Source of the DNA: Spirochaetaceae bacterium
GTDB taxonomy: Bacteria > Spirochaetota > Spirochaetia > SZUA-6 > Bin103
Direction of reading: 5' to 3'
Length of the DNA: 64,000 nucleotides
Assembly: GCA_028821475.1 (NCBI GenBank)
Contig: JAPPGB010000086.1
Coordinates: forward strand, 54,896 to 118,895
Shown here: positions 636 through 47,239 of the stretch, in pieces
Layout of the letters: every line of letters begins with the position of its first letter
How positions within the stretch are numbered: the stretch's first letter is position 1
Made by a program: the position numbers and the translations under genes
Notes under the pieces: model-generated
Database searches by the model: none
The model's input: the letters and a program-made list of their open reading frames with translations, nothing else
Told to the model about the DNA's origin: nothing

Positions 636-1634
636 ATGACCTCGTACATCGGGAGGCGGCTACTGTACATGGTGTTCACCATGATGGCGGTGTCAGTGGT
701 CGGCTTCGCGATCATCAAGCTGCCGCCGGGCGACTACCTGACGTTCCACCTGCAGCAACTCCAGCTCTCGGGTACCACGATGAGCAAGGCACAGCTTGAG
801 GGGATGCGCAAGCTGTACGGTCTCGATCAGCCCGACTACATCCAGTACCTGAAGTGGGTTGCCAACTTCCTCCAGGGCAACCTGGGCCTGTCCCACCAGT
901 GGAACAAGCCGGTCACCGAGCTGATCGGGGAACGGATCGGCCTCACCGTGCTGCTAGCGGTGATCACGCTGGCAGCCACCTATGCGATGGCGATTCCGAT
1001 CGGCATCTACTCCGCCACCCACCAGTACTCGGTGGGCGACTACACCGCCACCGTGTTCGGCTTCATCGGGCTGGCCACCCCCAACTTCCTGCTCGCCCTG
1101 ATCCTGATGTGGTTCTCCTACAGCGTGCTCGACTTCAGCATCACCGGCCTGTTCTCCTCCGAGTACCTGGATGCGCCGTGGAGCTTCGCCAAGGTGATCG
1201 ACATGCTGGGGCACCTGCCGGTGGCGATCCTGGTGGTCGCGACGGCCGGCACCGCCGGCCTGATCCGGGTGATGCGCAGTTCGCTGCTCGACGAGCTGCA
1301 GAAGCAGTACGTGATCACCGCCCGTTCCAAGGGCGTGGAAGAGGGCCAGCTCCTGTTCAAGTACCCGGTGCGCATCGCCATCAACCCGATCGTGAGCACC
1401 GTCGGCGGCCTGCTGCCGGAGATCGTTTCCGGCACCATCATCACCGCCATCGTCCTCAACCTGCCCACCGTGGGGCCGCTGCTGTTCACCGCCCTCACCG
1501 CCGAGGACATGCAGCTCGCCTCCAGCATCGTGATGGTGCTCGCGATTCTGACCGTGATCGGCACCTTCATCTCCGACATGCTGCTGTTGTGGATCGACCC
1601 GCGCATACGCTTCGAGCAGGAGCAGACGGCGTGA
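636..1634 (+). CDS. ABC peptide/nickel transporter permease (DppB/OppB-like)
   Basis: The N-terminus matches the DppB/OppB family (MTSYIGRRLLYMVFTMMAVSVVGFAIIKLPPGDYL). It has multiple TM segments, a BPD_transp_1-like core, and a GTGA overlap with the next permease gene. Confidence 0.85.
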   Translation: MTSYIGRRLLYMVFTMMAVSVVGFAIIKLPPGDYLTFHLQQLQLSGTTMSKAQLEGMRKLYGLDQPDYIQYLKWVANFLQGNLGLSHQWNKPVTELIGERIGLTVLLAVITLAATYAMAIPIGIYSATHQYSVGDYTATVFGFIGLATPNFLLALILMWFSYSVLDFSITGLFSSEYLDAPWSFAKVIDMLGHLPVAILVVATAGTAGLIRVMRSSLLDELQKQYVITARSKGVEEGQLLFKYPVRIAINPIVSTVGGLLPEIVSGTIITAIVLNLPTVGPLLFTALTAEDMQLASSIVMVLAILTVIGTFISDMLLLWIDPRIRFEQEQTA

Positions 1635-2761
1635 GCGAAGTGCTGCCGGCGGGCTTGACCGCGCGCGACGAAGCCGCCAACGAGAGTTACTACCTCGCCT
1701 CGCAATGGCAGTTGATCCGGCGCAAGTTCGCGCGCCACAAGCTGGCCAAGGCCGGCCTGGTGGTACTCGCGGTGCTCTACTTCGTGTCGATCTTCGCCGA
1801 GTTCTTCGCCACTCAGGACATCGCCAAGCGCGACACCGACAACATCTACGCGCCGCCGCAGCGCATCCGTTTCGTCAGCGAACAGGGGTTCTCGCCGCGG
1901 CCGTTCGTCTACCCGCTGCGCCTGGAGATGGACCGGGAGAAGTTCCGCAAGGTGTATCACCTGGAGACCTCGCAGCCGAGCTACCTGCGCCTGTTCGTGC
2001 GCGGCGACGAGTACCGGCTGTGGAACCTGTTCCGCAGCGACCTGCACCTGTTCGGGGTGGAGCACGGCACGCTGTACCTGCTCGGCACCGACAAGTTCGG
2101 GCGCGACATGTTTTCGCGCGTCCTGTACGCGGCGCGCACGTCGCTTTCCATCGGCCTGATCGGGGTGGCGATGACGTTCGTTATCGGCTGTTCGCTCGGC
2201 GGCATCTCCGGGTTTTTCGGCGGGCGCTCCGACATGGCGGTGCAGCGGCTGATCGAGTTCATGCAGTCGATTCCCACCATCCCGTTGTGGATGGCGCTGT
2301 CGGCCGCCATGCCGCGCGACTGGAGCCCGCTGCAGATCTACTTCGCCATCACCATCATCCTGTCGATCGTGAGCTGGGGCGGCCTGGCGCGGGTGGTACG
2401 CGGCAAGCTGCTGCAGTTGCGCGCCGAGGACTTCGTGATGGCCGCCGCCATCGCCGGCACCGGACCGGGGGCGACCATCGCGCGCCACCTGCTGCCCTCG
2501 TTCATGAGCTACCTGATCGTCAACCTCACGCTGGCGGTGCCCAACATGATCCTGGGCGAGACGGCGCTGAGCTTCCTGGGGCTGGGGCTGCGCCCGCCGG
2601 TGGTGAGCTGGGGCGTGCTGCTGAAGGAGGCGCAGAACGTGCGCACGGTGGCGCTGCACCCGTGGCTGCTGGTGCCGGGACTGTGGGTGATCGTGACCGT
2701 ACTGGCGTTCAACTTCGTGGGCGACGGCCTGCGCGACGCCGCCGACCCGTACAAACAGTAG
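1631..2761 (+). CDS. ABC peptide transporter permease (DppC/OppC-like)
   Basis: A GTG start at 1631 overlaps the upstream stop codon. The product has OppC-like N-terminal and TM regions. The longer track ORF 854-2761 is the same frame read through the upstream gene. Confidence 0.8.
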   Translation: MSEVLPAGLTARDEAANESYYLASQWQLIRRKFARHKLAKAGLVVLAVLYFVSIFAEFFATQDIAKRDTDNIYAPPQRIRFVSEQGFSPRPFVYPLRLEMDREKFRKVYHLETSQPSYLRLFVRGDEYRLWNLFRSDLHLFGVEHGTLYLLGTDKFGRDMFSRVLYAARTSLSIGLIGVAMTFVIGCSLGGISGFFGGRSDMAVQRLIEFMQSIPTIPLWMALSAAMPRDWSPLQIYFAITIILSIVSWGGLARVVRGKLLQLRAEDFVMAAAIAGTGPGATIARHLLPSFMSYLIVNLTLAVPNMILGETALSFLGLGLRPPVVSWGVLLKEAQNVRTVALHPWLLVPGLWVIVTVLAFNFVGDGLRDAADPYKQ

Positions 2762-2832
2762 TTTGTCCCGTACAAACAGTAGTTTGTCACGTACAGGCAG
2801 TAGCTTGTCGGCCTTCAAGCAGTAAGCTTGCC
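2747..2832. repeat. Array of four tandem ~21-bp units (consensus CCGTACAAACAGTAGTTTGTC), each a small hairpin; unit 1 overlaps the permease stop codon
   Basis: Units lie at 2747-2767, 2768-2788, 2789-2809 and 2810-2832. Units 1 and 2 form ACAAAC/GTTTGT stems. Unit 3 has a one-mismatch stem (ACAGGC/GCTTGT, one G-U wobble as RNA) and unit 4 a CAAGC/GCTTG stem, all around an AGTAG/AGTAA loop. The stem changes are compensatory. Confidence 0.6.
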
Positions 2833-4606
2833 GGAGAACCAGTTCACGGTGGCACCGACGGCGCTGGTGGCCGCGACGCTCCTGGCGACGGCACTGTTCG
2901 CGAGCGACGCCGCCGGTCAAAGTTCGCCGCCCGGCTACCGCGTCGCCGTCACCCGATTTGCCGAGCCGGTCTGCGACGGCACGGCGCGGTTCGTTCGCCA
3001 CGAGTTGCCGCACGCATCGTCCTTCGACGCCGAGTCCGGAAGCCCGTTCGCCGGCATCGGCTCCGGAGTGGCGGTGGGCGACGTCGACGCCGACGGCGAC
3101 CTGGACATCGCATTCGCCAACCTGGTGGGGCCCGGCACGGTACTGATCAACGCCGGCGAGCCGTGGGCCGGGGGCGGACCGGCGTTCGAGCCGGTCACCA
3201 TTGCCAACTCGCGCACCCGCGGGGTGTTCCTGGTGGACGAGAACGCCGACGGCGCGCTTGACCTGGTGTTCACGCGCCCGCACACGCCGCCGCAACTGTG
3301 GCTCGGCGACGGCGCCGGTGGCTTCGCTCCCGCGGACCGCTTCGGGGCATGGTATCCTGCCATGACCATGGCGTGGGCCGACGCCGACCGCGACGGCGAC
3401 CTGGACATCGCGTCGGCCACCTACGACGCGGAGATGGTGGAGGAGATGGGCAACGTGCTGTTCGGCAGCGGCGTGGTCTACTACGAGCGCCGCGCCGGGC
3501 GGCTGGAGCCGCGCTCGCTGGTCAACACCGCCGAGGCGCTGGCGCTGCTGTTCACCGACCTGGACGGCGACGGGCTGGCCGACATCCTGGTCGGCAACGA
3601 CTTCGACCGCGAGGACTACGTCTACCTGCGCCGCGGCGACGGCTGGCAACCGGCGGAGCCGTTCGCGGCCACGACGCGCAACACCATGAGCTTCGACCTC
3701 GCCGACCTGGACAACGACGGCAGCGAGGAGCTGTTCGCCGCCGACATGAAGCCGTTCCACCCGGATGCCGCTACCGAAGCGGCCTGGGAGCCGGTGTACC
3801 GCTACTACGAGAAGCCGGCGCGCGGTTCGCTGCAGATCAACGAGAACGTGCTGCTGCGCCGCATGGCGGCCGGCGAGCCGGGCGGCGGGCAACTCCGCTT
3901 CGCGAACGAGGCGGCGGCGCGCGGCGTCGACGCCACCGGCTGGAGCTGGTCGGCCAAGTTCGGCGACCTGGACAACGACGGCTTCGCCGACCTGTACGTG
4001 GTCAACGGCATGATCGCCGCCGACATGTTCGGCCACCTGCCGGGCAACGAGCTGGTGGAGGAAAACCTGGCGTTCCGCAACGACGGCAGCGGCCACTTCA
4101 CGCCGGCCCCGGAGTGGGGACTGGGCGACACCGCCGGCGGGCGCGGCATGAGCATGGCGGACTTCGACCGCGACGGCGACCTGGACATCGTGATCAACAA
4201 CATCGGCGCCCCGGCGGTGCTGTACGAGAACCGGCTGTGCGGCGGCCGCGCCGCGCAGGTGGCGCTGCGCTGGCCGGGGTCGGCCAACGCGTTCGCGGTG
4301 GGCGCGCGGCTGCGCCTGGAGAGCGCGCAGGGCGTGCAGACGCGCGAGTTGCGCAGCGGCAGCGGCTACCTGTCCGGCGACCCACCGGAGGCCCACTTCG
4401 GGCTGGGCGGCGGCCACCTGCCGGGCGGCACGCTTACCGTGCTGTGGCCCGACGGCGTGCAGGCGGCCTTTGCCGTGCCGGCCGCCGGCACCCGCATCGT
4501 GATTACCCGAGAACAGGAGGCACGGTCACTCCGGGATGGCGGCGGCCACCAGGACCGCGGCACAGGCATCGCACGCGCGTCCGCACTTTCCGGATCGGCG
4601 CAATGA
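2828..4606 (+). CDS. Secreted CRTAC1-family protein (FG-GAP/VCBS repeats plus C-terminal ASPIC/UnbV domain)
   Basis: It has a signal-peptide-like N-terminus, repeated DxDxDGxxD motifs (GDVDADGDLDIA, ADRDGDLDIA, TDLDGDGLADI, FDRDGDLDIV) and a C-terminal UnbV_ASPIC-like segment. The start is uncertain: TTG at 2828 lies inside the repeat array, and an in-frame GTG at 2849 is an alternative. Confidence 0.7.
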   Translation: MPENQFTVAPTALVAATLLATALFASDAAGQSSPPGYRVAVTRFAEPVCDGTARFVRHELPHASSFDAESGSPFAGIGSGVAVGDVDADGDLDIAFANLVGPGTVLINAGEPWAGGGPAFEPVTIANSRTRGVFLVDENADGALDLVFTRPHTPPQLWLGDGAGGFAPADRFGAWYPAMTMAWADADRDGDLDIASATYDAEMVEEMGNVLFGSGVVYYERRAGRLEPRSLVNTAEALALLFTDLDGDGLADILVGNDFDREDYVYLRRGDGWQPAEPFAATTRNTMSFDLADLDNDGSEELFAADMKPFHPDAATEAAWEPVYRYYEKPARGSLQINENVLLRRMAAGEPGGGQLRFANEAAARGVDATGWSWSAKFGDLDNDGFADLYVVNGMIAADMFGHLPGNELVEENLAFRNDGSGHFTPAPEWGLGDTAGGRGMSMADFDRDGDLDIVINNIGAPAVLYENRLCGGRAAQVALRWPGSANAFAVGARLRLESAQGVQTRELRSGSGYLSGDPPEAHFGLGGGHLPGGTLTVLWPDGVQAAFAVPAAGTRIVITREQEARSLRDGGGHQDRGTGIARASALSGSAQ

Positions 4607-25206: not shown

Positions 25207-27276
25207 ATGGATGCCGTGACCTCTACCACCCTCTGGTCCACCGTTGCCGCGCTGCCCGATTACCTCCTGTTGGCGCAGACGCGGCAGCTCGCCCGCCACG
25301 AGCAGGCGCTGCAGATCCTGGTGCTCGACCACCTGCGCGAGATCGAGGCGCGCCGCCTCCACCTGACGCGCGGGTACGGCAGTCTGTTCGACTACGTGGT
25401 GCACGAACTGGGCTACACCGCGGCCGCCGCCTGGCGGCGGATCAAGGCGATGCGGCTGTGCACGCAGACCGACGCGGCACGCGAGTTGCTGCGGGACGGC
25501 TCGCTGAACCTGAGCAACGCAGCGCAACTGCAGAACCTGTTCGAACGCAGCGACCGTAGCGACCGCAGCCGCGGCGGTCCGCCGGTCAGTGACGGCGCCG
25601 GTGCCGGCCTGGGCGAGGCGCCGCGGAATGACGGCGCACCGGGGGAACCGGCGCTGGCGGCACCGATGCACGGCGGCGAGCGCGACCTGGCACCGGTGGC
25701 CGGGCCGGTACTGGACGCGGCGGCGCGGGAGAAGCTGGTCCGGCAGGCGGCCGGCAAGAGCACGCGCGAAGTGCAGCAGATGCTGGCCGAGGTGGACCCG
25801 GAGCTGGCGCAGCCGAGCGACCGGATGCGCGCGCTCGCCGGCGGGCGCTGGGAGCTGAAGGCGGCGGGCGACGCGGAGTGCCGGCATGGGCTGGAGAAGC
25901 TTCTGATGCTGCTGTCGCACACCGACCCGCACCTCACGCTGGGCGGGCTGGTGGCGCGGCTGGTGCGGGAAGGCCTGCACCGCTACGACCCGGAGCGGCC
26001 ACCGAGTCCGCGGCGTCCGGGCGGGGGCGCCTCGGTCGCCGGCGTGCGAACGCCGACCAAGCCGGCGCGGCGGGATACGGAGACAGTGCAGCGGAACGCG
26101 GCGCGCGCGAAGGGCCGCGATGTCGAACGGCAGAGCGGAATCGAGCGGGGCGACACGCCGTTGGCGGCCGATGGGGATGGCACTCCCCGTCCTTCGGCGC
26201 CGAAACGGCAAGCGGAGGGCGAGCGCGGCAGCACGGAGCCGGCGGCGGTGCGGGATATTGTCTGCGGCACCGCTTCGGCGGCGAAGCGCCGCTCGGAGGT
26301 CGAGCATGGCAGCGTTCCGCTCGAGGAGGCACCGAGCAGCGTCGGGCGCCCCGCTTCGCCGGCGAAGCGCCACTCCGGCACCGAGCACGGCAGCGCGTCA
26401 CCGGTAGCGGCACCGAACAGCGGTGGGCGCCACCCTTCGCCGACGAAGCGCGAAGCCGAAGCCGAGCACGGCGGCGCGAGGTTCACGGCGGTGCGGGATA
26501 TTGTCCGCGGCACCGCTTCGGCGGCGAAGCGCCGCTCGGAGGTCGAGCATGGCAGCGTTCCGCTCGAGGAGGCACCGAGCAGCGTCGGGCGCCCCGCTTC
26601 GCCGGCGAAGCGCCACTCGGGCACCGAGCACGGCAGCATGTCACCGGTAGCGGCACCGAACAGCGGTGGGCGCCACCCTTCGCCGGCGAAGCGCGAAGCC
26701 GAACTCGGGCGCGCGTCGCGCGCCGTGGCGCGGGACGGCGGCGGGCGGGCGGTTGCGGCGGCACGGCGGGATACGGAGGCCGAGCGCAGCGGCGCGTCAT
26801 CGGCGGCGGAACCGACCAACAGCGGGCCAGCCGCTTCGGCGGCGAAGCGGCTGGCGTACGCCGCCGGGCTTGGTGCGGTGGGGCCGGTGGAGCGTTCGCC
26901 GGCTCTGCAGCGGCACCTCGCCGCGTTGCGCTGCTGCGACGCGGTGCCGGGCTCCCGCTCGCGGTACATCCCGGTAGCGGTGAAGCGGGAGGTGTGGCGG
27001 CGCGACCAGGGTCGTTGCAGCTATGTCGACCCGCACAGCGGGCGGCGCTGCGGCTCCCGCTATCGGCTGGAGATCGACCACGTCGTGCCGTTCGCGCTCG
27101 GCGGCCGTACCGAGTTGTTCAACTTGCGCGTGCGTTGCCGTGCTCACCACAGGTTGCGCCATGCTCGCGCCGAACGTGTGCCGCCTGAAGCCCGGCGCTC
27201 CGGTCTCCACGGTCGATCGCAAGGAACGCGGGCGGACGGTCGGTCGCATGCGGCAATCGATCCGGCCGGGGGGTGA
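25207..27276 (+). CDS. DUF222 / HNH endonuclease (REP13E12-family) protein with a repetitive linker
   Basis: It has an N-terminal DUF222-like region and a C-terminal HNH motif (CSYVDPHSGRRCGSRYRLEIDHVVPFALGG ... CRAHHRL). Confidence 0.75.
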   Translation: MDAVTSTTLWSTVAALPDYLLLAQTRQLARHEQALQILVLDHLREIEARRLHLTRGYGSLFDYVVHELGYTAAAAWRRIKAMRLCTQTDAARELLRDGSLNLSNAAQLQNLFERSDRSDRSRGGPPVSDGAGAGLGEAPRNDGAPGEPALAAPMHGGERDLAPVAGPVLDAAAREKLVRQAAGKSTREVQQMLAEVDPELAQPSDRMRALAGGRWELKAAGDAECRHGLEKLLMLLSHTDPHLTLGGLVARLVREGLHRYDPERPPSPRRPGGGASVAGVRTPTKPARRDTETVQRNAARAKGRDVERQSGIERGDTPLAADGDGTPRPSAPKRQAEGERGSTEPAAVRDIVCGTASAAKRRSEVEHGSVPLEEAPSSVGRPASPAKRHSGTEHGSASPVAAPNSGGRHPSPTKREAEAEHGGARFTAVRDIVRGTASAAKRRSEVEHGSVPLEEAPSSVGRPASPAKRHSGTEHGSMSPVAAPNSGGRHPSPAKREAELGRASRAVARDGGGRAVAAARRDTEAERSGASSAAEPTNSGPAASAAKRLAYAAGLGAVGPVERSPALQRHLAALRCCDAVPGSRSRYIPVAVKREVWRRDQGRCSYVDPHSGRRCGSRYRLEIDHVVPFALGGRTELFNLRVRCRAHHRLRHARAERVPPEARRSGLHGRSQGTRADGRSHAAIDPAGG
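26245..26703 (+). repeat. 243-bp tandem duplication (about 1.9 copies, 4 mismatches) inside the HNH gene, with a nested sub-repeat of about 57 bp
   Basis: Copy A is 26245-26487 and copy B is 26488 to about 26703. The sub-repeat encodes a KR-x-x-E-x-EHG motif. Confidence 0.8.
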
Positions 27277-46447: not shown

Positions 46448-47239
46448 CTAGCGCGCCAGCGACTCGGAGGGATGCTCGATCTCGCCCTCCACGTAGTCCT
46501 TGGGGCTCAGCTCCTCGATCGGCTCGCGGATTTGGCGAGCCACGCCGATGCCGATGGTCTCGGTGTTGCCGTCGAACGCGCACCAGCGCACGCCATTGGC
46601 GATGACGTGCAGCACGCCCTCGTGGTGAAAGATCGGATAGGTTTCATGGCCGGGGCGGAAGTAGAAGATCTTGCCGCGCCCGCGGTGCCAGACGGCCCCG
46701 CTACGGAACACCTCGCCGCCCTCGAACCAGCTCACGAACAGCAGTTCGTCCGGCTCGGGGATGTCGAAGTGCTCACCATACATCTCGGCGTTCGGAATCT
46801 CGATGTAGCGCCCGCACCCGCGGGTGATGGGATGATTGGGGTTGACCACCCACAGCCGCTCCCGCTCCGCCGCCTCGCGCCAGCACAGCCCGCAGCTCGT
46901 CCCCATCATGCGCTTGAAAATCTTCGAAAAGTGTCCCGAGTGCAGCACCACCAGCCCCATTCCCGCCAGGATGCGCTCCTGCACGCGATCCACGATGTCG
47001 TCGCGCACCTTGCGATGTGCGGCGTGCCCCCACCAGATCAGCACGTCGGTGTTGTCGAGCACCTCCTCGGTGAGGCCATGGTCCGGCTCCTCCAGCGTGG
47101 CGGTGGCAACCTCCAGGCCCGGCTGCCGGCGCAGGTAGCCGCCGATCTGCTCATGTATCCCGTGCGGATAAATGCCGCGCACGAAGTCGTTGTTCTGCTC
47201 GTGCACGAACTCGTTCCATACCGTTACCCGAATTGCCAT
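46448..47239 (-). CDS. ThuA-family (trehalose utilisation) protein
   Basis: The N-terminus [15 protein letters not shown] and a glutamine-amidotransferase-like fold are typical of ThuA. Confidence 0.65.

Follow-up and report, generated by a model that had tools for sequence, protein, structure and literature searches.

The window, which is the whole 64-kb stretch of DNA analyzed here, contains a neighborhood of genes comprising PRPP synthetase, oppB, oppC, FG-GAP/ASPIC, HAD, and PIN. The gene for an OppC-like ABC peptide permease (positions 1631 to 2761, plus strand; Pfam OppC_N and BPD_transp_1) encodes a protein ending in ...DAADPYKQ, and the exact permease protein is present on two other contigs. 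It is followed by a CRTAC1-like FG-GAP/UnbV_ASPIC gene (2828 to 4606, plus strand), the product of which is probably secreted and for which TTG at 2828 and GTG at 2849 to 2851 are candidate start codons. Tandem hairpin units, recognized between these two genes in a first-pass annotation, are indeed located there, at positions 2747 to 2832. The same annotation correctly placed both ends of the array: unit 1 overlaps the permease stop codon (TAG, 2759 to 2761), which falls within hairpin 1, and the last unit reaches the called start of the FG-GAP/ASPIC gene (TTG, 2828 to 2830), which forms part of the 3' arm of the unit 4 hairpin.

Three of the units in the array are clean 21-nt repeats and the fourth is degenerate; all four can fold into a weak 5- to 6-bp hairpin. 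The initial description of four 21-bp units therefore holds for the first three, but not for unit 4, which measures 23 nt. A unit is made up of the last four permease codons (PYKQ), a TAG stop, one base, TTG, and three to four more bases, and its hairpin pairs the permease Tyr-Lys-Gln codons with the TTG region. Unit 1 (2747 to 2767, plus strand; CCGTACAAACAGTAGTTTGTC) contains the native final four codons of the permease (CCG TAC AAA CAG), the TAG stop, and then T, TTG, and TC; its hairpin (2751 to 2766) reads ACAAAC AGTA GTTTGT. Unit 2 (2768 to 2788, plus strand) is an exact copy of unit 1, with the hairpin at 2772 to 2787 and an in-frame TAG at 2780 to 2782. Unit 3 (2789 to 2809, plus strand; ACGTACAGGCAGTAGCTTGTC) folds as ACAGGC AGTA GCTTGT (2793 to 2808) with a single G.U pair and carries an in-frame TAG at 2801 to 2803. 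In unit 4 (2810 to 2832, plus strand; GGCCTTCAAGCAGTAAGCTTGCC), CAAGC (2816 to 2820) pairs with GCTTG (2826 to 2830) across the loop AGTAA, and the hairpin includes a TAA (2823 to 2825) and the TTG at 2828 to 2830. Loops had been listed as AGTAG/AGTAA; the 5-nt AGTAA is found in unit 4, whereas units 1 to 3 have the 4-nt loop AGTA. Translated, the array reads PYKQ*FV / PYKQ*FV / TYRQ*LV.

TRF reports a repeat at 2746 to 2809 with a period of 21, 3.0 copies, 90% matches, and a score of 100, and the 16-bp palindromes (layout 6+4+6) are spaced at 21, 21. When up to three mismatches are allowed, the 16-mer matches four times in the window versus 0.04 expected, and none of 100 shuffles gave four matches. 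Perfect hairpins with a 6-bp stem, a 4-nt loop, and at most two G-C pairs occur three times in the window, two of them being units 1 and 2. The GC content is 0.49 in the array region versus about 0.68 in the flanks. The 5- to 6-bp stems are A/U-rich in a 68% GC genome, with unit fold energies of -4.2 to -6.8 kcal/mol and single-unit folding z-scores of -2 to -4.5. Because the same array is present base for base on two independent metagenome contigs, it is genuine sequence and not an assembly artifact.

When about 30 related contigs were compared, nearly identical strains of a Spirochaetia MAG clade proved to carry anywhere from 1 to 4 units. Four units are present in the window, L001, L002, L068, and L069; three in L017 to L021 and L067; two and a part in L003, L014, L016, L070, L022, and L026; and one in L071 and L072, each of which keeps a different unit. 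A single assembly supplied L070, L071, and L072, which encode an identical permease protein; the differences among them are deletions of exactly 21 nt, in two registers, L070 being a two-unit allele versus the one-unit alleles L071 and L072. No hairpin is found in L006, L008 to L013, and L015, all of which except L006 encode a permease protein identical to that of the array-bearing L014 and L016, and the array is absent in most strains having the same permease protein. The hairpin is also missing in L004, a relative at 87% identity, and in L005, a relative at 80%, and L007 is a mosaic allele whose stop-adjacent TTG does not share the frame of the downstream gene. A paralogous permease precedes the array in L026, where the array has AA and GA as spacers, like that of L017, and terminates exactly at the paralog's own GTACAAGCAGTAG; judging by these sequences, it was apparently carried there by gene conversion. 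The window and L068 differ at 2 positions in the 86-nt array versus 1.1% across 5.26 kb, and the array shows no sign of purifying selection. Across units and lineages, the 19-nt core varies less than the 2-nt inter-unit spacer (CC, AC, GG, GA, AA, GC), which simple slippage does not predict and which counts against slippage as the explanation.

In the 64-kb window, no further unit copies with up to three mismatches were found, aside from one likely chance match. A genome-wide search for the motif, as had been suggested at the outset, mapped the exact 18-mer to a single locus per chromosome in two complete Spirochaetia genomes of 5.0 and 7.0 Mb (accessions OZ242313.1 and OZ253572.1); in one of the two, the locus lies behind a paralogous permease. 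Five other GTDB matches, in unrelated taxa, were read as chance. A first metagenome pattern scan returned no matches, and a second returned 38 matches judged to be chance (unrelated, mostly AT-richer contigs) together with one true homologue, the single homologous contig obtained from the JGI metagenomes. A dispersed REP-like repeat was rejected after the window search, the genome-collection scan, and the two metagenome scans.

All relatives end in a conserved C-terminal DPYK[QNS], which implies that unit 1 has ancestral coding sequence as its 5' half and that the other units were copied from it. One base past the permease TAG, a TTG opens a 20-codon ORF in the +1 frame (2763 to 2825, plus strand; MSRTNSSLSRTGSSLSAFKQ followed by a stop), the TAA of which ends 2 nt before the TTG at 2828, giving the layout TAG-T-TTG(2763)...TAA(2825)-GC-TTG(2828). 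This ORF is seen in the sequence and, if translated, could relay ribosomes from one end of the array to the other. It takes the place of a direct downstream frame in the window and in L068. In L003, L014, L070 to L072, L017, L067, L006, and L008, a start 0 to 3 nt past the TAG opens a downstream ORF of 566 to 630 amino acids, and in L026 the stop-adjacent start opens the 346-amino-acid ORF of the paralog's neighbor. The gap from stop to start measures 0 nt where the array is missing, 1 nt where it is present, and 3 nt in L022. An in-frame start 0 to 3 nt past the stop is thus found in every allele class but L007, including the paralogous locus with its different downstream gene. The continuous frame should carry less weight than it seems to, since a genome with 68% GC often leaves ORFs open by chance (probability of approximately 0.1 for three of four in-frame contexts).

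In array-free alleles, the junction TAG|GTG yields a protein starting with MRVGRAAVAPP..., which adds two Arg residues before the hydrophobic stretch, and the position of the TTG at 2828 matches this stop-adjacent GTG. Since these strains have no hairpin, the hairpin is not required for the junction. No Shine-Dalgarno sequence was found near the stop-adjacent start; a strong GGAGAGGAGG precedes a clade gene after a long intergenic gap and is missing at the array junction. Neighboring operon junctions are 4-nt overlaps, and a paralogous OppC-to-FG-GAP junction measures 8 nt. A 937-amino-acid gene call, along with a protein cluster mixing permease and FG-GAP proteins, had raised the idea of a permease-to-FG-GAP fusion by stop-codon loss. 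This idea was rejected, as the 937-amino-acid product reflects frameshifted read-through within a paralogous operon and is unrelated to the array. Recoding or readthrough at the three in-frame TAG stops was dropped for lack of support.

The first-pass annotation argued for function from a structure preserved under substitution. This is true of one compensatory change, in which stem pair 5 turned from G-C in relatives (ACAAGC/GCTTGT) to A-T in units 1 and 2 of the window (ACAAAC/GTTTGT). The change represents a single evolutionary event that was copied later by duplication. The wobble in unit 3 is one recent, strain-specific A-to-G SNP at 2796: the sister strains L068 and L069 keep the A and a perfect ACAAGC/GCTTGT stem. 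Other changes break the pairing or the loop, with the terminal pair disrupted by GCTTGCC in L014, L070, and L072 and the loop altered in L017 and L022. The covariation check proposed earlier gave little: across 13 distinct units, one of the six stem pairs changed on both sides, in 2 of the 13 units and as one event, and 138 of 500 shuffles matched the observed number of covarying pairs, leaving no statistical power. Two of the six pairs never vary, and two depart only through unpaired cells. For the compensatory double change, both new bases fall at sites without coding constraint, and the probability of its arising by chance is roughly 1/30 by a rough estimate, so some selection on pairing may be at work.

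A search of positions 2500 to 3100 against Rfam 15 at a permissive E value gave no match in the array; the sub-threshold matches outside it were P2 (22.6 bits versus a gathering threshold of 80) and snoZ206 (14.8 versus 50). No terminator-like site was detected in 2400 to 3300, and a promoter scan was likewise negative. A G+C-rich stem with a U tract is not present, the stems being A/U-rich and followed by no T run. Folding of the whole region gave a z-score of about -1.7 on either strand, with no strand preference and no notable stability, and the junction folded in the contexts of other alleles was likewise unremarkable.

We consider it probable that the array is a variable-number tandem repeat, formed by slippage-generated copies of a 21-bp translational-coupling junction and tolerated as stop, start, and frame persist. 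The anatomy, the variable copy number, the restricted distribution, and the continuous reading frame are observed directly, and from there we infer that slippage is the mechanism, that the TTG is used, and that translation is coupled. The array would have originated by duplication of the 21 bp where the oppC-like permease gene stops and its downstream neighbor in the operon starts, with whole units then gained or lost via replication slippage or unequal recombination. In the single-copy state, slippage could proceed through the microhomology flanking the hairpin (GTACA...21 nt...GTACA), and later through pairing between units. Template switching, which can make hairpins and compensatory changes in one step (PMC8794818; PMC7202029), may account for the origin of the 3' arm and for the single compensatory change. 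After duplication, the first TAG would still terminate the permease, a start codon would still lie 1 nt beyond it, and the downstream frame would stay open; the array could persist because 21 nt equals seven codons. In most array alleles, the units are predicted to add Ser/Thr-rich heptads (SSTSSSL) to the N terminus of the next protein, and in the window a frame change in unit 4 would have produced the separate 20-codon relay ORF. The hairpin may hide the TTG until the ribosome completing the permease melts the stem, in a termination-reinitiation type of coupling. [quoted passage not shown] The likely physiological effect of the array is on translational coupling by termination-reinitiation, and any function probably lies in this coupling, not in an attenuator or iteron.

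A purely neutral microduplication in a noncoding spacer, without effect on translation and with the downstream gene initiating alone at GTG 2849 and both the stop-adjacent start codons and the open frames as by-products of high GC content, is rather unlikely, though not negligible. The variation in unit number, the narrow distribution, and the absence of the array in most strains fit it equally well, the substitution density in the array is not below that of the flanks, and the fold energies of the region are unremarkable. GTG 2849 aligns with the GTG picked by gene callers in strains without the array and is preceded by a GGAG at 2833 to 2836; however, the 12 nt between them is long for a Shine-Dalgarno sequence. 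Also counting against neutrality are the recurrence of the stop-adjacent in-frame start in all allele classes but L007, the paralogous locus included, and the TAA of unit 4, which closes the +1 ORF exactly, 2 nt before TTG 2828. A selected RNA structure, the main idea of the first-pass annotation, whether a protein-binding platform, a REP-like 3' barrier stabilizing the oppBC message, or a device for downstream attenuation, strikes us as improbable. All units fold alike with the low single-unit z-scores given above, one pair change is compensatory and another wobble-compatible (the latter tolerated on the plus strand only), and the core varies less than the spacers. Against this stand the single covariation event with its invariant and unpaired positions, the weak A/U-rich stems, the confinement to one locus per genome, and the absence of the array from most conspecific strains and from outgroups; in addition, template switching accounts for compensatory changes without selection (PMC8794818). 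The attenuator or structured regulatory RNA put forward in the first-pass annotation finds no backing either, given the lack of an Rfam match, of a U tract, and of a terminator-like site and the variable copy number.

Its other proposal, iteron-like operators, would have dimeric regulators bind the 16-bp palindromes as double-stranded DNA and control the downstream gene, which we regard as very improbable. The 6+4+6 layout would suit such sites, as would the 21-bp spacing (two helical turns), which puts them on one face of the helix. Yet the 5' half-site is set by conserved coding sequence, the stem bases vary by lineage while staying complementary, leaving no fixed recognition sequence, and no regulator or replication gene adjoins the array, nor is there a promoter-like site. 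Furthermore, most strains lack the array, and in L026 it tracks the permease end despite a different downstream gene. A likeness to LexA/Cheo-box or LacI-type operators was considered and dropped, as the core varies but stays complementary and the left half-site is coding. It is also doubtful that the array acts as a contingency-type rheostat, with a selected hairpin. Here, 21-nt copy changes would tune either the ribosome hand-over from the permease to the secreted CRTAC1-like protein or the number of Ser/Thr-rich heptads before its signal peptide, with the TTG exposed only by the terminating ribosome, in the setting of a symbiont-like Spirochaetia population. No description of a copy-number-variable translational coupler was encountered.

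The hairpins at this junction are thus real, yet they represent a strain-variable duplication and not a conserved regulatory RNA or operator array. Absence of the motif from relatives had been named in advance as a sign of microduplication; this is largely what was found, and a role at the RNA level in the translational hand-over between the two genes survives as a possibility. If the array is an ordinary duplication, it illustrates that compensatory-looking hairpin repeats can arise from one event and subsequent duplication, and copy-number data from close strains deserve checking before an RNA function is proposed. It would also shift the start codon that is likely for the downstream gene family to one that abuts the permease stop. 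If coupling does operate across the duplicated junction, the array would be a compact natural repeat that is tolerated since each copy re-creates stop and start, parallel to the idea proposed for MIRUs, and usable as a tunable coupling element.

Several known systems share features with this array. REPs occur as hundreds of dispersed copies with stable stems. Like REP/BIME elements, the units are small hairpins, at times tandem, located just past a stop codon within an operon; unlike them, they are confined to a single locus, weak, and derived from coding sequence, with neither a stable exonuclease-blocking stem nor, in the window and in the exact 18-mer search of the two complete chromosomes, dispersed copies. 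MIRUs measure 46 to 101 bp and are dispersed over about 40 loci per genome. They resemble the array in forming tandem units between co-oriented genes and in having repeat ORF ends that abut the flanking stop and start, so that coupling can persist (PMC12548453), an arrangement to which the window ORF at 2763 to 2825 conforms; in other alleles, the TTG frame runs directly into the downstream gene. Whereas MIRUs are described as apparently mobile (PMC12548453), the 21-bp unit stems from the local gene end, occupies one locus per genome and one paralog by apparent conversion, and gives no hint of being mobile.

Translationally coupled gene pairs with a masked start offer a further parallel: the same-strand start lies 0 to 3 nt from the upstream stop, it sits in a stem the other arm of which is the end of the upstream ORF, and no Shine-Dalgarno sequence is nearby. 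Here, however, coupling is putative and the junction is present in several tandem copies; no description of such a tandem arrangement was encountered, though no literature search was aimed at it. As in quasipalindrome or template-switch mutation, a short inverted repeat changes in both arms together (PMC8794818, PMC7202029), but that is a mutational mechanism, invoked here as a possible source of the 3' arm and of the single compensatory change, and not a class of element. The array also resembles bacterial VNTRs, or minisatellites, that arise by slipped-strand mispairing. Its units are arranged head to tail, as seen in the TRF repeat and the 21, 21 spacing, and whole units are gained or lost among near-identical strains and within one sample. 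The single-copy state is flanked by GTACA microhomology, and the intrinsic hairpin can stabilize slipped intermediates. Unlike the anonymous spacer or internal coding repeats of other VNTRs, the unit straddles a stop and the adjacent start, and each copy re-creates both.

The array at 2747-2832 consists of four tandem units, CCGTACAAACAGTAGTTTGTC (2747-2767), CCGTACAAACAGTAGTTTGTC (2768-2788), ACGTACAGGCAGTAGCTTGTC (2789-2809) and a degenerate 23-nt fourth, GGCCTTCAAGCAGTAAGCTTGCC (2810-2832). Tandem Repeats Finder assigns 2746-2809 a period of 21 (3.0 copies, score 100), and the 16-nt hairpin core, allowing ≤3 mismatches, is matched four times in the window versus 0.04 expected, a count reached in 0/100 shuffles. 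These values confirm the array as the first-pass annotation had described it. In units 1 to 3 the stem is 6 bp long and the loop AGTA; in unit 4 they are 5 bp and AGTAA. The GC content of the array is 0.49, in contrast to ~0.68 in its flanks. The identical array is present on two independent metagenome contigs and is thus no assembly artifact. A single-copy, GC-richer palindrome with the same 6+4+6 layout (ACGAACAGCAGTTCGT, 46734-46749), three mismatches from the repeat core, is probably a chance match. The window also holds a 243-bp tandem repeat (26192-26703; 1.9 copies, 97% identical) of about 81-bp sub-repeats, within a 689-aa ORF (25207-27276, + strand) that ends with an HNH-endonuclease-like motif, IDHVVPFALGG...HH.

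The array lies between the genes for an OppC-type ABC peptide permease (1631-2761) and an FG-GAP/UnbV_ASPIC (CRTAC1-like) protein, whose called start is TTG 2828. Hairpin 1 encloses the permease stop codon (TAG, 2759-2761), and the 3' arm of unit 4 includes TTG 2828. The 21-nt period equals seven codons, and translation in frame with the permease gives PYKQ*FV / PYKQ*FV / TYRQ*LV for the array. Since the permease ends in ...DAADPYK(Q/N/S) in all relatives, the 5' half of unit 1 is ancestral coding sequence. The units that follow are copies of the last four permease codons, the stop codon and 6 further bases.

About 30 homologous contigs, found via exact-protein look-ups and pattern scans, were compared. 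Loci L006, L008-L013 and L015 have neither hairpin nor array (junction ...CAGTAG GTGCGAGTCGGCAGGGCGGCG GTG...); except in L006, their permease protein is exactly that of the array-bearing L014 and L016. One unit, differing between the two, is retained in L071 and L072, and two units plus a partial GTACA are found in L003, L014, L016 and L070. L022 has two units, with a 2-nt insertion in the first loop, L017-L021 and L067 have three, and the window, L001, L002, L068 and L069 have four. The outgroups L004 (87% permease identity) and L005 (80%) show nothing similar 3' of the stop. Loci L070, L071 and L072, from one assembly and with an identical permease protein, are distinguished by deletions of exactly 21 nt that fall in two registers, as slippage or unequal crossing-over would be expected to produce. 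In the single-unit state, GTACA...21 nt...GTACA microhomology brackets the hairpin, a classical setting for an initial duplication event.

Locus L007 (3599-3790) is a mosaic, in which one 20-nt unit and GTACAAGCAG are joined to no-array-type downstream sequence. It also holds an insert from the L003-type N-terminal region, and the TTG next to its stop does not share the frame of the downstream gene. This allele could have arisen by recombination between allele classes or be a copy in decay. Upstream of oppB (first 1500 bases per locus), L006-L021 strains with identical permease proteins differ as well: some carry a substrate-binding protein gene, others PRPP synthetase, DUF6036 and a small ORF, and in L011 a transposase lies beside a truncated binding-protein gene. 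The entire region is a rearrangement hotspot at the strain level.

No other copies of the array occur in the 64-kb window. Among 185,579 species representatives, the 18-mer TACAAGCAGTAGCTTGTC was found in two relevant genomes, both complete 'Spirochaetia bacterium' chromosomes; five further matches, all to unrelated taxa, are taken to be chance hits. The JGI metagenomes yielded one homologous contig. A genome-wide search for the 21-mer had been proposed earlier; with the exact 18-mer at one locus per relevant genome, the array is not a dispersed element. At locus L026 (OZ253572.1, 1022-1060, - strand), which is one of these two chromosomal occurrences, two units plus GTACAAGCAGTAG lie 3' of a paralogous OppC-like permease gene (373 aa, about 75-80% nucleotide identity), whose downstream neighbor is a different gene, a 346-aa ORF. 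The inter-unit spacers, AA and GA, are those of the L017 class, the array stops precisely where the paralog's own terminal GTACAAGCAGTAG lies, and the last 42 coding bases are those of the window, the Lys codon excepted. The only retrieved copy of the orthologous permease P0122, at L006 on another contig, is without an array. The L026 pattern is consistent with ectopic gene conversion via the conserved end of the gene, and this copy is no indication of an independent functional requirement.

For every allele, the first start codon 3' of the permease TAG and the ORF it opens were checked. In the no-array alleles, TAG directly abuts GTG (0-nt gap), which opens a 566-aa ORF beginning MRVGRAAVAPPVLVV... 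and adds two Arg before the hydrophobic stretch relative to the GTG called 21 nt later. At these junctions (L006/L008-L013/L015; e.g., L008:3629-3655, equivalent to window 2828-2851), the abutting GTG is in frame with the FG-GAP/ASPIC gene (product MRVGRAAVAPP...), and gene callers, choosing the GTG 21 nt downstream, probably mis-call the start of this family. Alleles with one to three units read TAG-C-TTG (TAG-CGC-TTG in L022), and from this TTG the whole downstream gene is open (573-630 aa, but 245 aa for L022), in which the array would encode SSTSSSL-type heptads. The paralog L026 likewise has TAG-C-TTG, opening 346 aa in frame with its different downstream gene. In the window and L068, TAG-T-TTG(2763) opens a separate 20-codon ORF, MSRTNSSLSRTGSSLSAFKQ*, which two phase-shifting 1-nt insertions in unit 4 close at TAA 2823-2825, two bases short of TTG 2828. 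From TTG 2828 to GTG 2849 is 21 nt, as is the distance from the stop-adjacent to the called GTG in no-array alleles. The stop-adjacent start pattern is broken only in the mosaic L007.

The remaining operon junctions are 4-nt overlaps, and a paralogous OppC-to-FG-GAP junction is 8 nt. A gene after a long gap in this clade has a strong GGAGAGGAGG; no comparable site was found upstream of the FG-GAP start, where the sole GGAG is 12 nt away from GTG 2849. Given the allele layouts, the neighboring junctions and the missing strong initiation site, "stop-start junction" is the description that suits the 21-nt unit best. In its hairpin, the upstream ORF's end is base-paired with the downstream ORF's TTG, as in an RNA-unfolding or termination-reinitiation coupling site (reviewed in PMC12548453). 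This reading is moderated by the ease with which ORFs stay open at 68% GC; the chance probability of three in four independent contexts being in frame is ~0.1.

After a P0006/P0003-type paralogous permease, L073-L078 (~3671-3860) have a 65-187-nt intergenic region with a TTGACA...TAAGAT promoter-like pair and a strong GGAGAGGAGG just 5' of the binding-protein gene GTG, a model of an independent initiation site in this clade. In the paralogous operon of L075 (1-1035), a 937-aa 'OppC-FG-GAP fusion' gene call (P0278) was rejected as a frameshifted read-through that runs from the 3' portion of the permease gene into the gene that follows; the actual junction there is TAG + 8 nt + GTG. Separately, 376-aa permeases are grouped with 585-aa FG-GAP proteins in one protein cluster at 90% identity.

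The first-pass annotation had argued for function from a structure preserved under substitution. The stem is ACAAGC/GCTTGT in relatives versus ACAAAC/GTTTGT in window units 1 and 2, which is a genuine compensatory change: AAG to AAA leaves Lys unchanged, and the partner C to T affects the single base between TAG and TTG. That part of the argument holds, but the change is one event, then copied by duplication. Across 13 distinct units, 1/6 pairs covaries and 2/6 never vary, and the same number of covarying pairs was reached in 138/500 shuffles. The unit-3 wobble (ACAGGC) is a single A to G at 2796, and sister strains L068 and L069 keep a perfect stem. The terminal pair is broken by GCTTGCC in L014, L070, L072 and window unit 4, and the loop is altered in L017 unit 2, L022 unit 1 and window unit 4. 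The window and L068 show two differences in the 86-nt array versus 1.1% over 5.26 kb, hence no sign of purifying selection on the array, and hairpin energies are weak (-4.2 to -6.8 kcal/mol). By our own estimate, the chance of two substitutions falling on paired free sites with the right bases is ~1/30, which is at most suggestive. Template switching during replication has been documented to generate hairpins and to introduce compensatory changes in a single step (PMC8794818; PMC7202029). The 2-nt inter-unit spacer (CC, AC, GG, GA, AA, GC) is far more variable than the 19-nt core, which simple slippage does not explain.

The junction has undergone tandem duplication with strain-variable copy number and whole-unit resizing, and the array is restricted to a narrow clade, where it has moved to a paralog by way of homology. 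It may have originated by slippage at the hairpin with its flanking microhomology, the 3' arm and the single compensatory change being possible template-switching products. The array would be tolerated because each 21-nt copy preserves a stop, a start and the frame. Ribosomes ending the permease would reinitiate at the TTG one base later and continue straight into the downstream protein or, in the window, via the 20-codon relay ORF and a restart at TTG 2828. More distance and more structure 3' of the stop should lower coupling (PMC12548453); array copy number could therefore modulate expression.

According to the first-pass annotation, a motif unique to its locus and not conserved in relatives would suggest a neutral microduplication, and this is largely what the comparison revealed. 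A neutral duplication with no role in translation agrees with the lack of purifying selection, less so with the recurring stop-adjacent start, and we consider it rather unlikely. The compensatory change would suit a selected RNA structure, for example a stabilizer or protein-binding platform; given the shuffles and the weak hairpins, such selection seems improbable. A DNA operator or iteron array is very unlikely, the 5' half-site being dictated by conserved coding sequence. The best explanation of the array is an ordinary slippage-type repeat that sits at an unusual site.

The functional candidates proposed earlier (attenuator, protein-binding RNA, iteron-like operators) are not supported. 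The array is without terminator or attenuator features and matches no Rfam family. It differs from REP/BIME elements in dispersion and stem stability. With MIRUs it shares a putatively coupled ORF between operon genes, but not their defining interspersion and unit size. The array does qualify as a bacterial VNTR, with both head-to-tail units and whole-unit polymorphism, and its residual interest is that the duplicated stop-start junction is possibly a copy-number-variable translational coupler.
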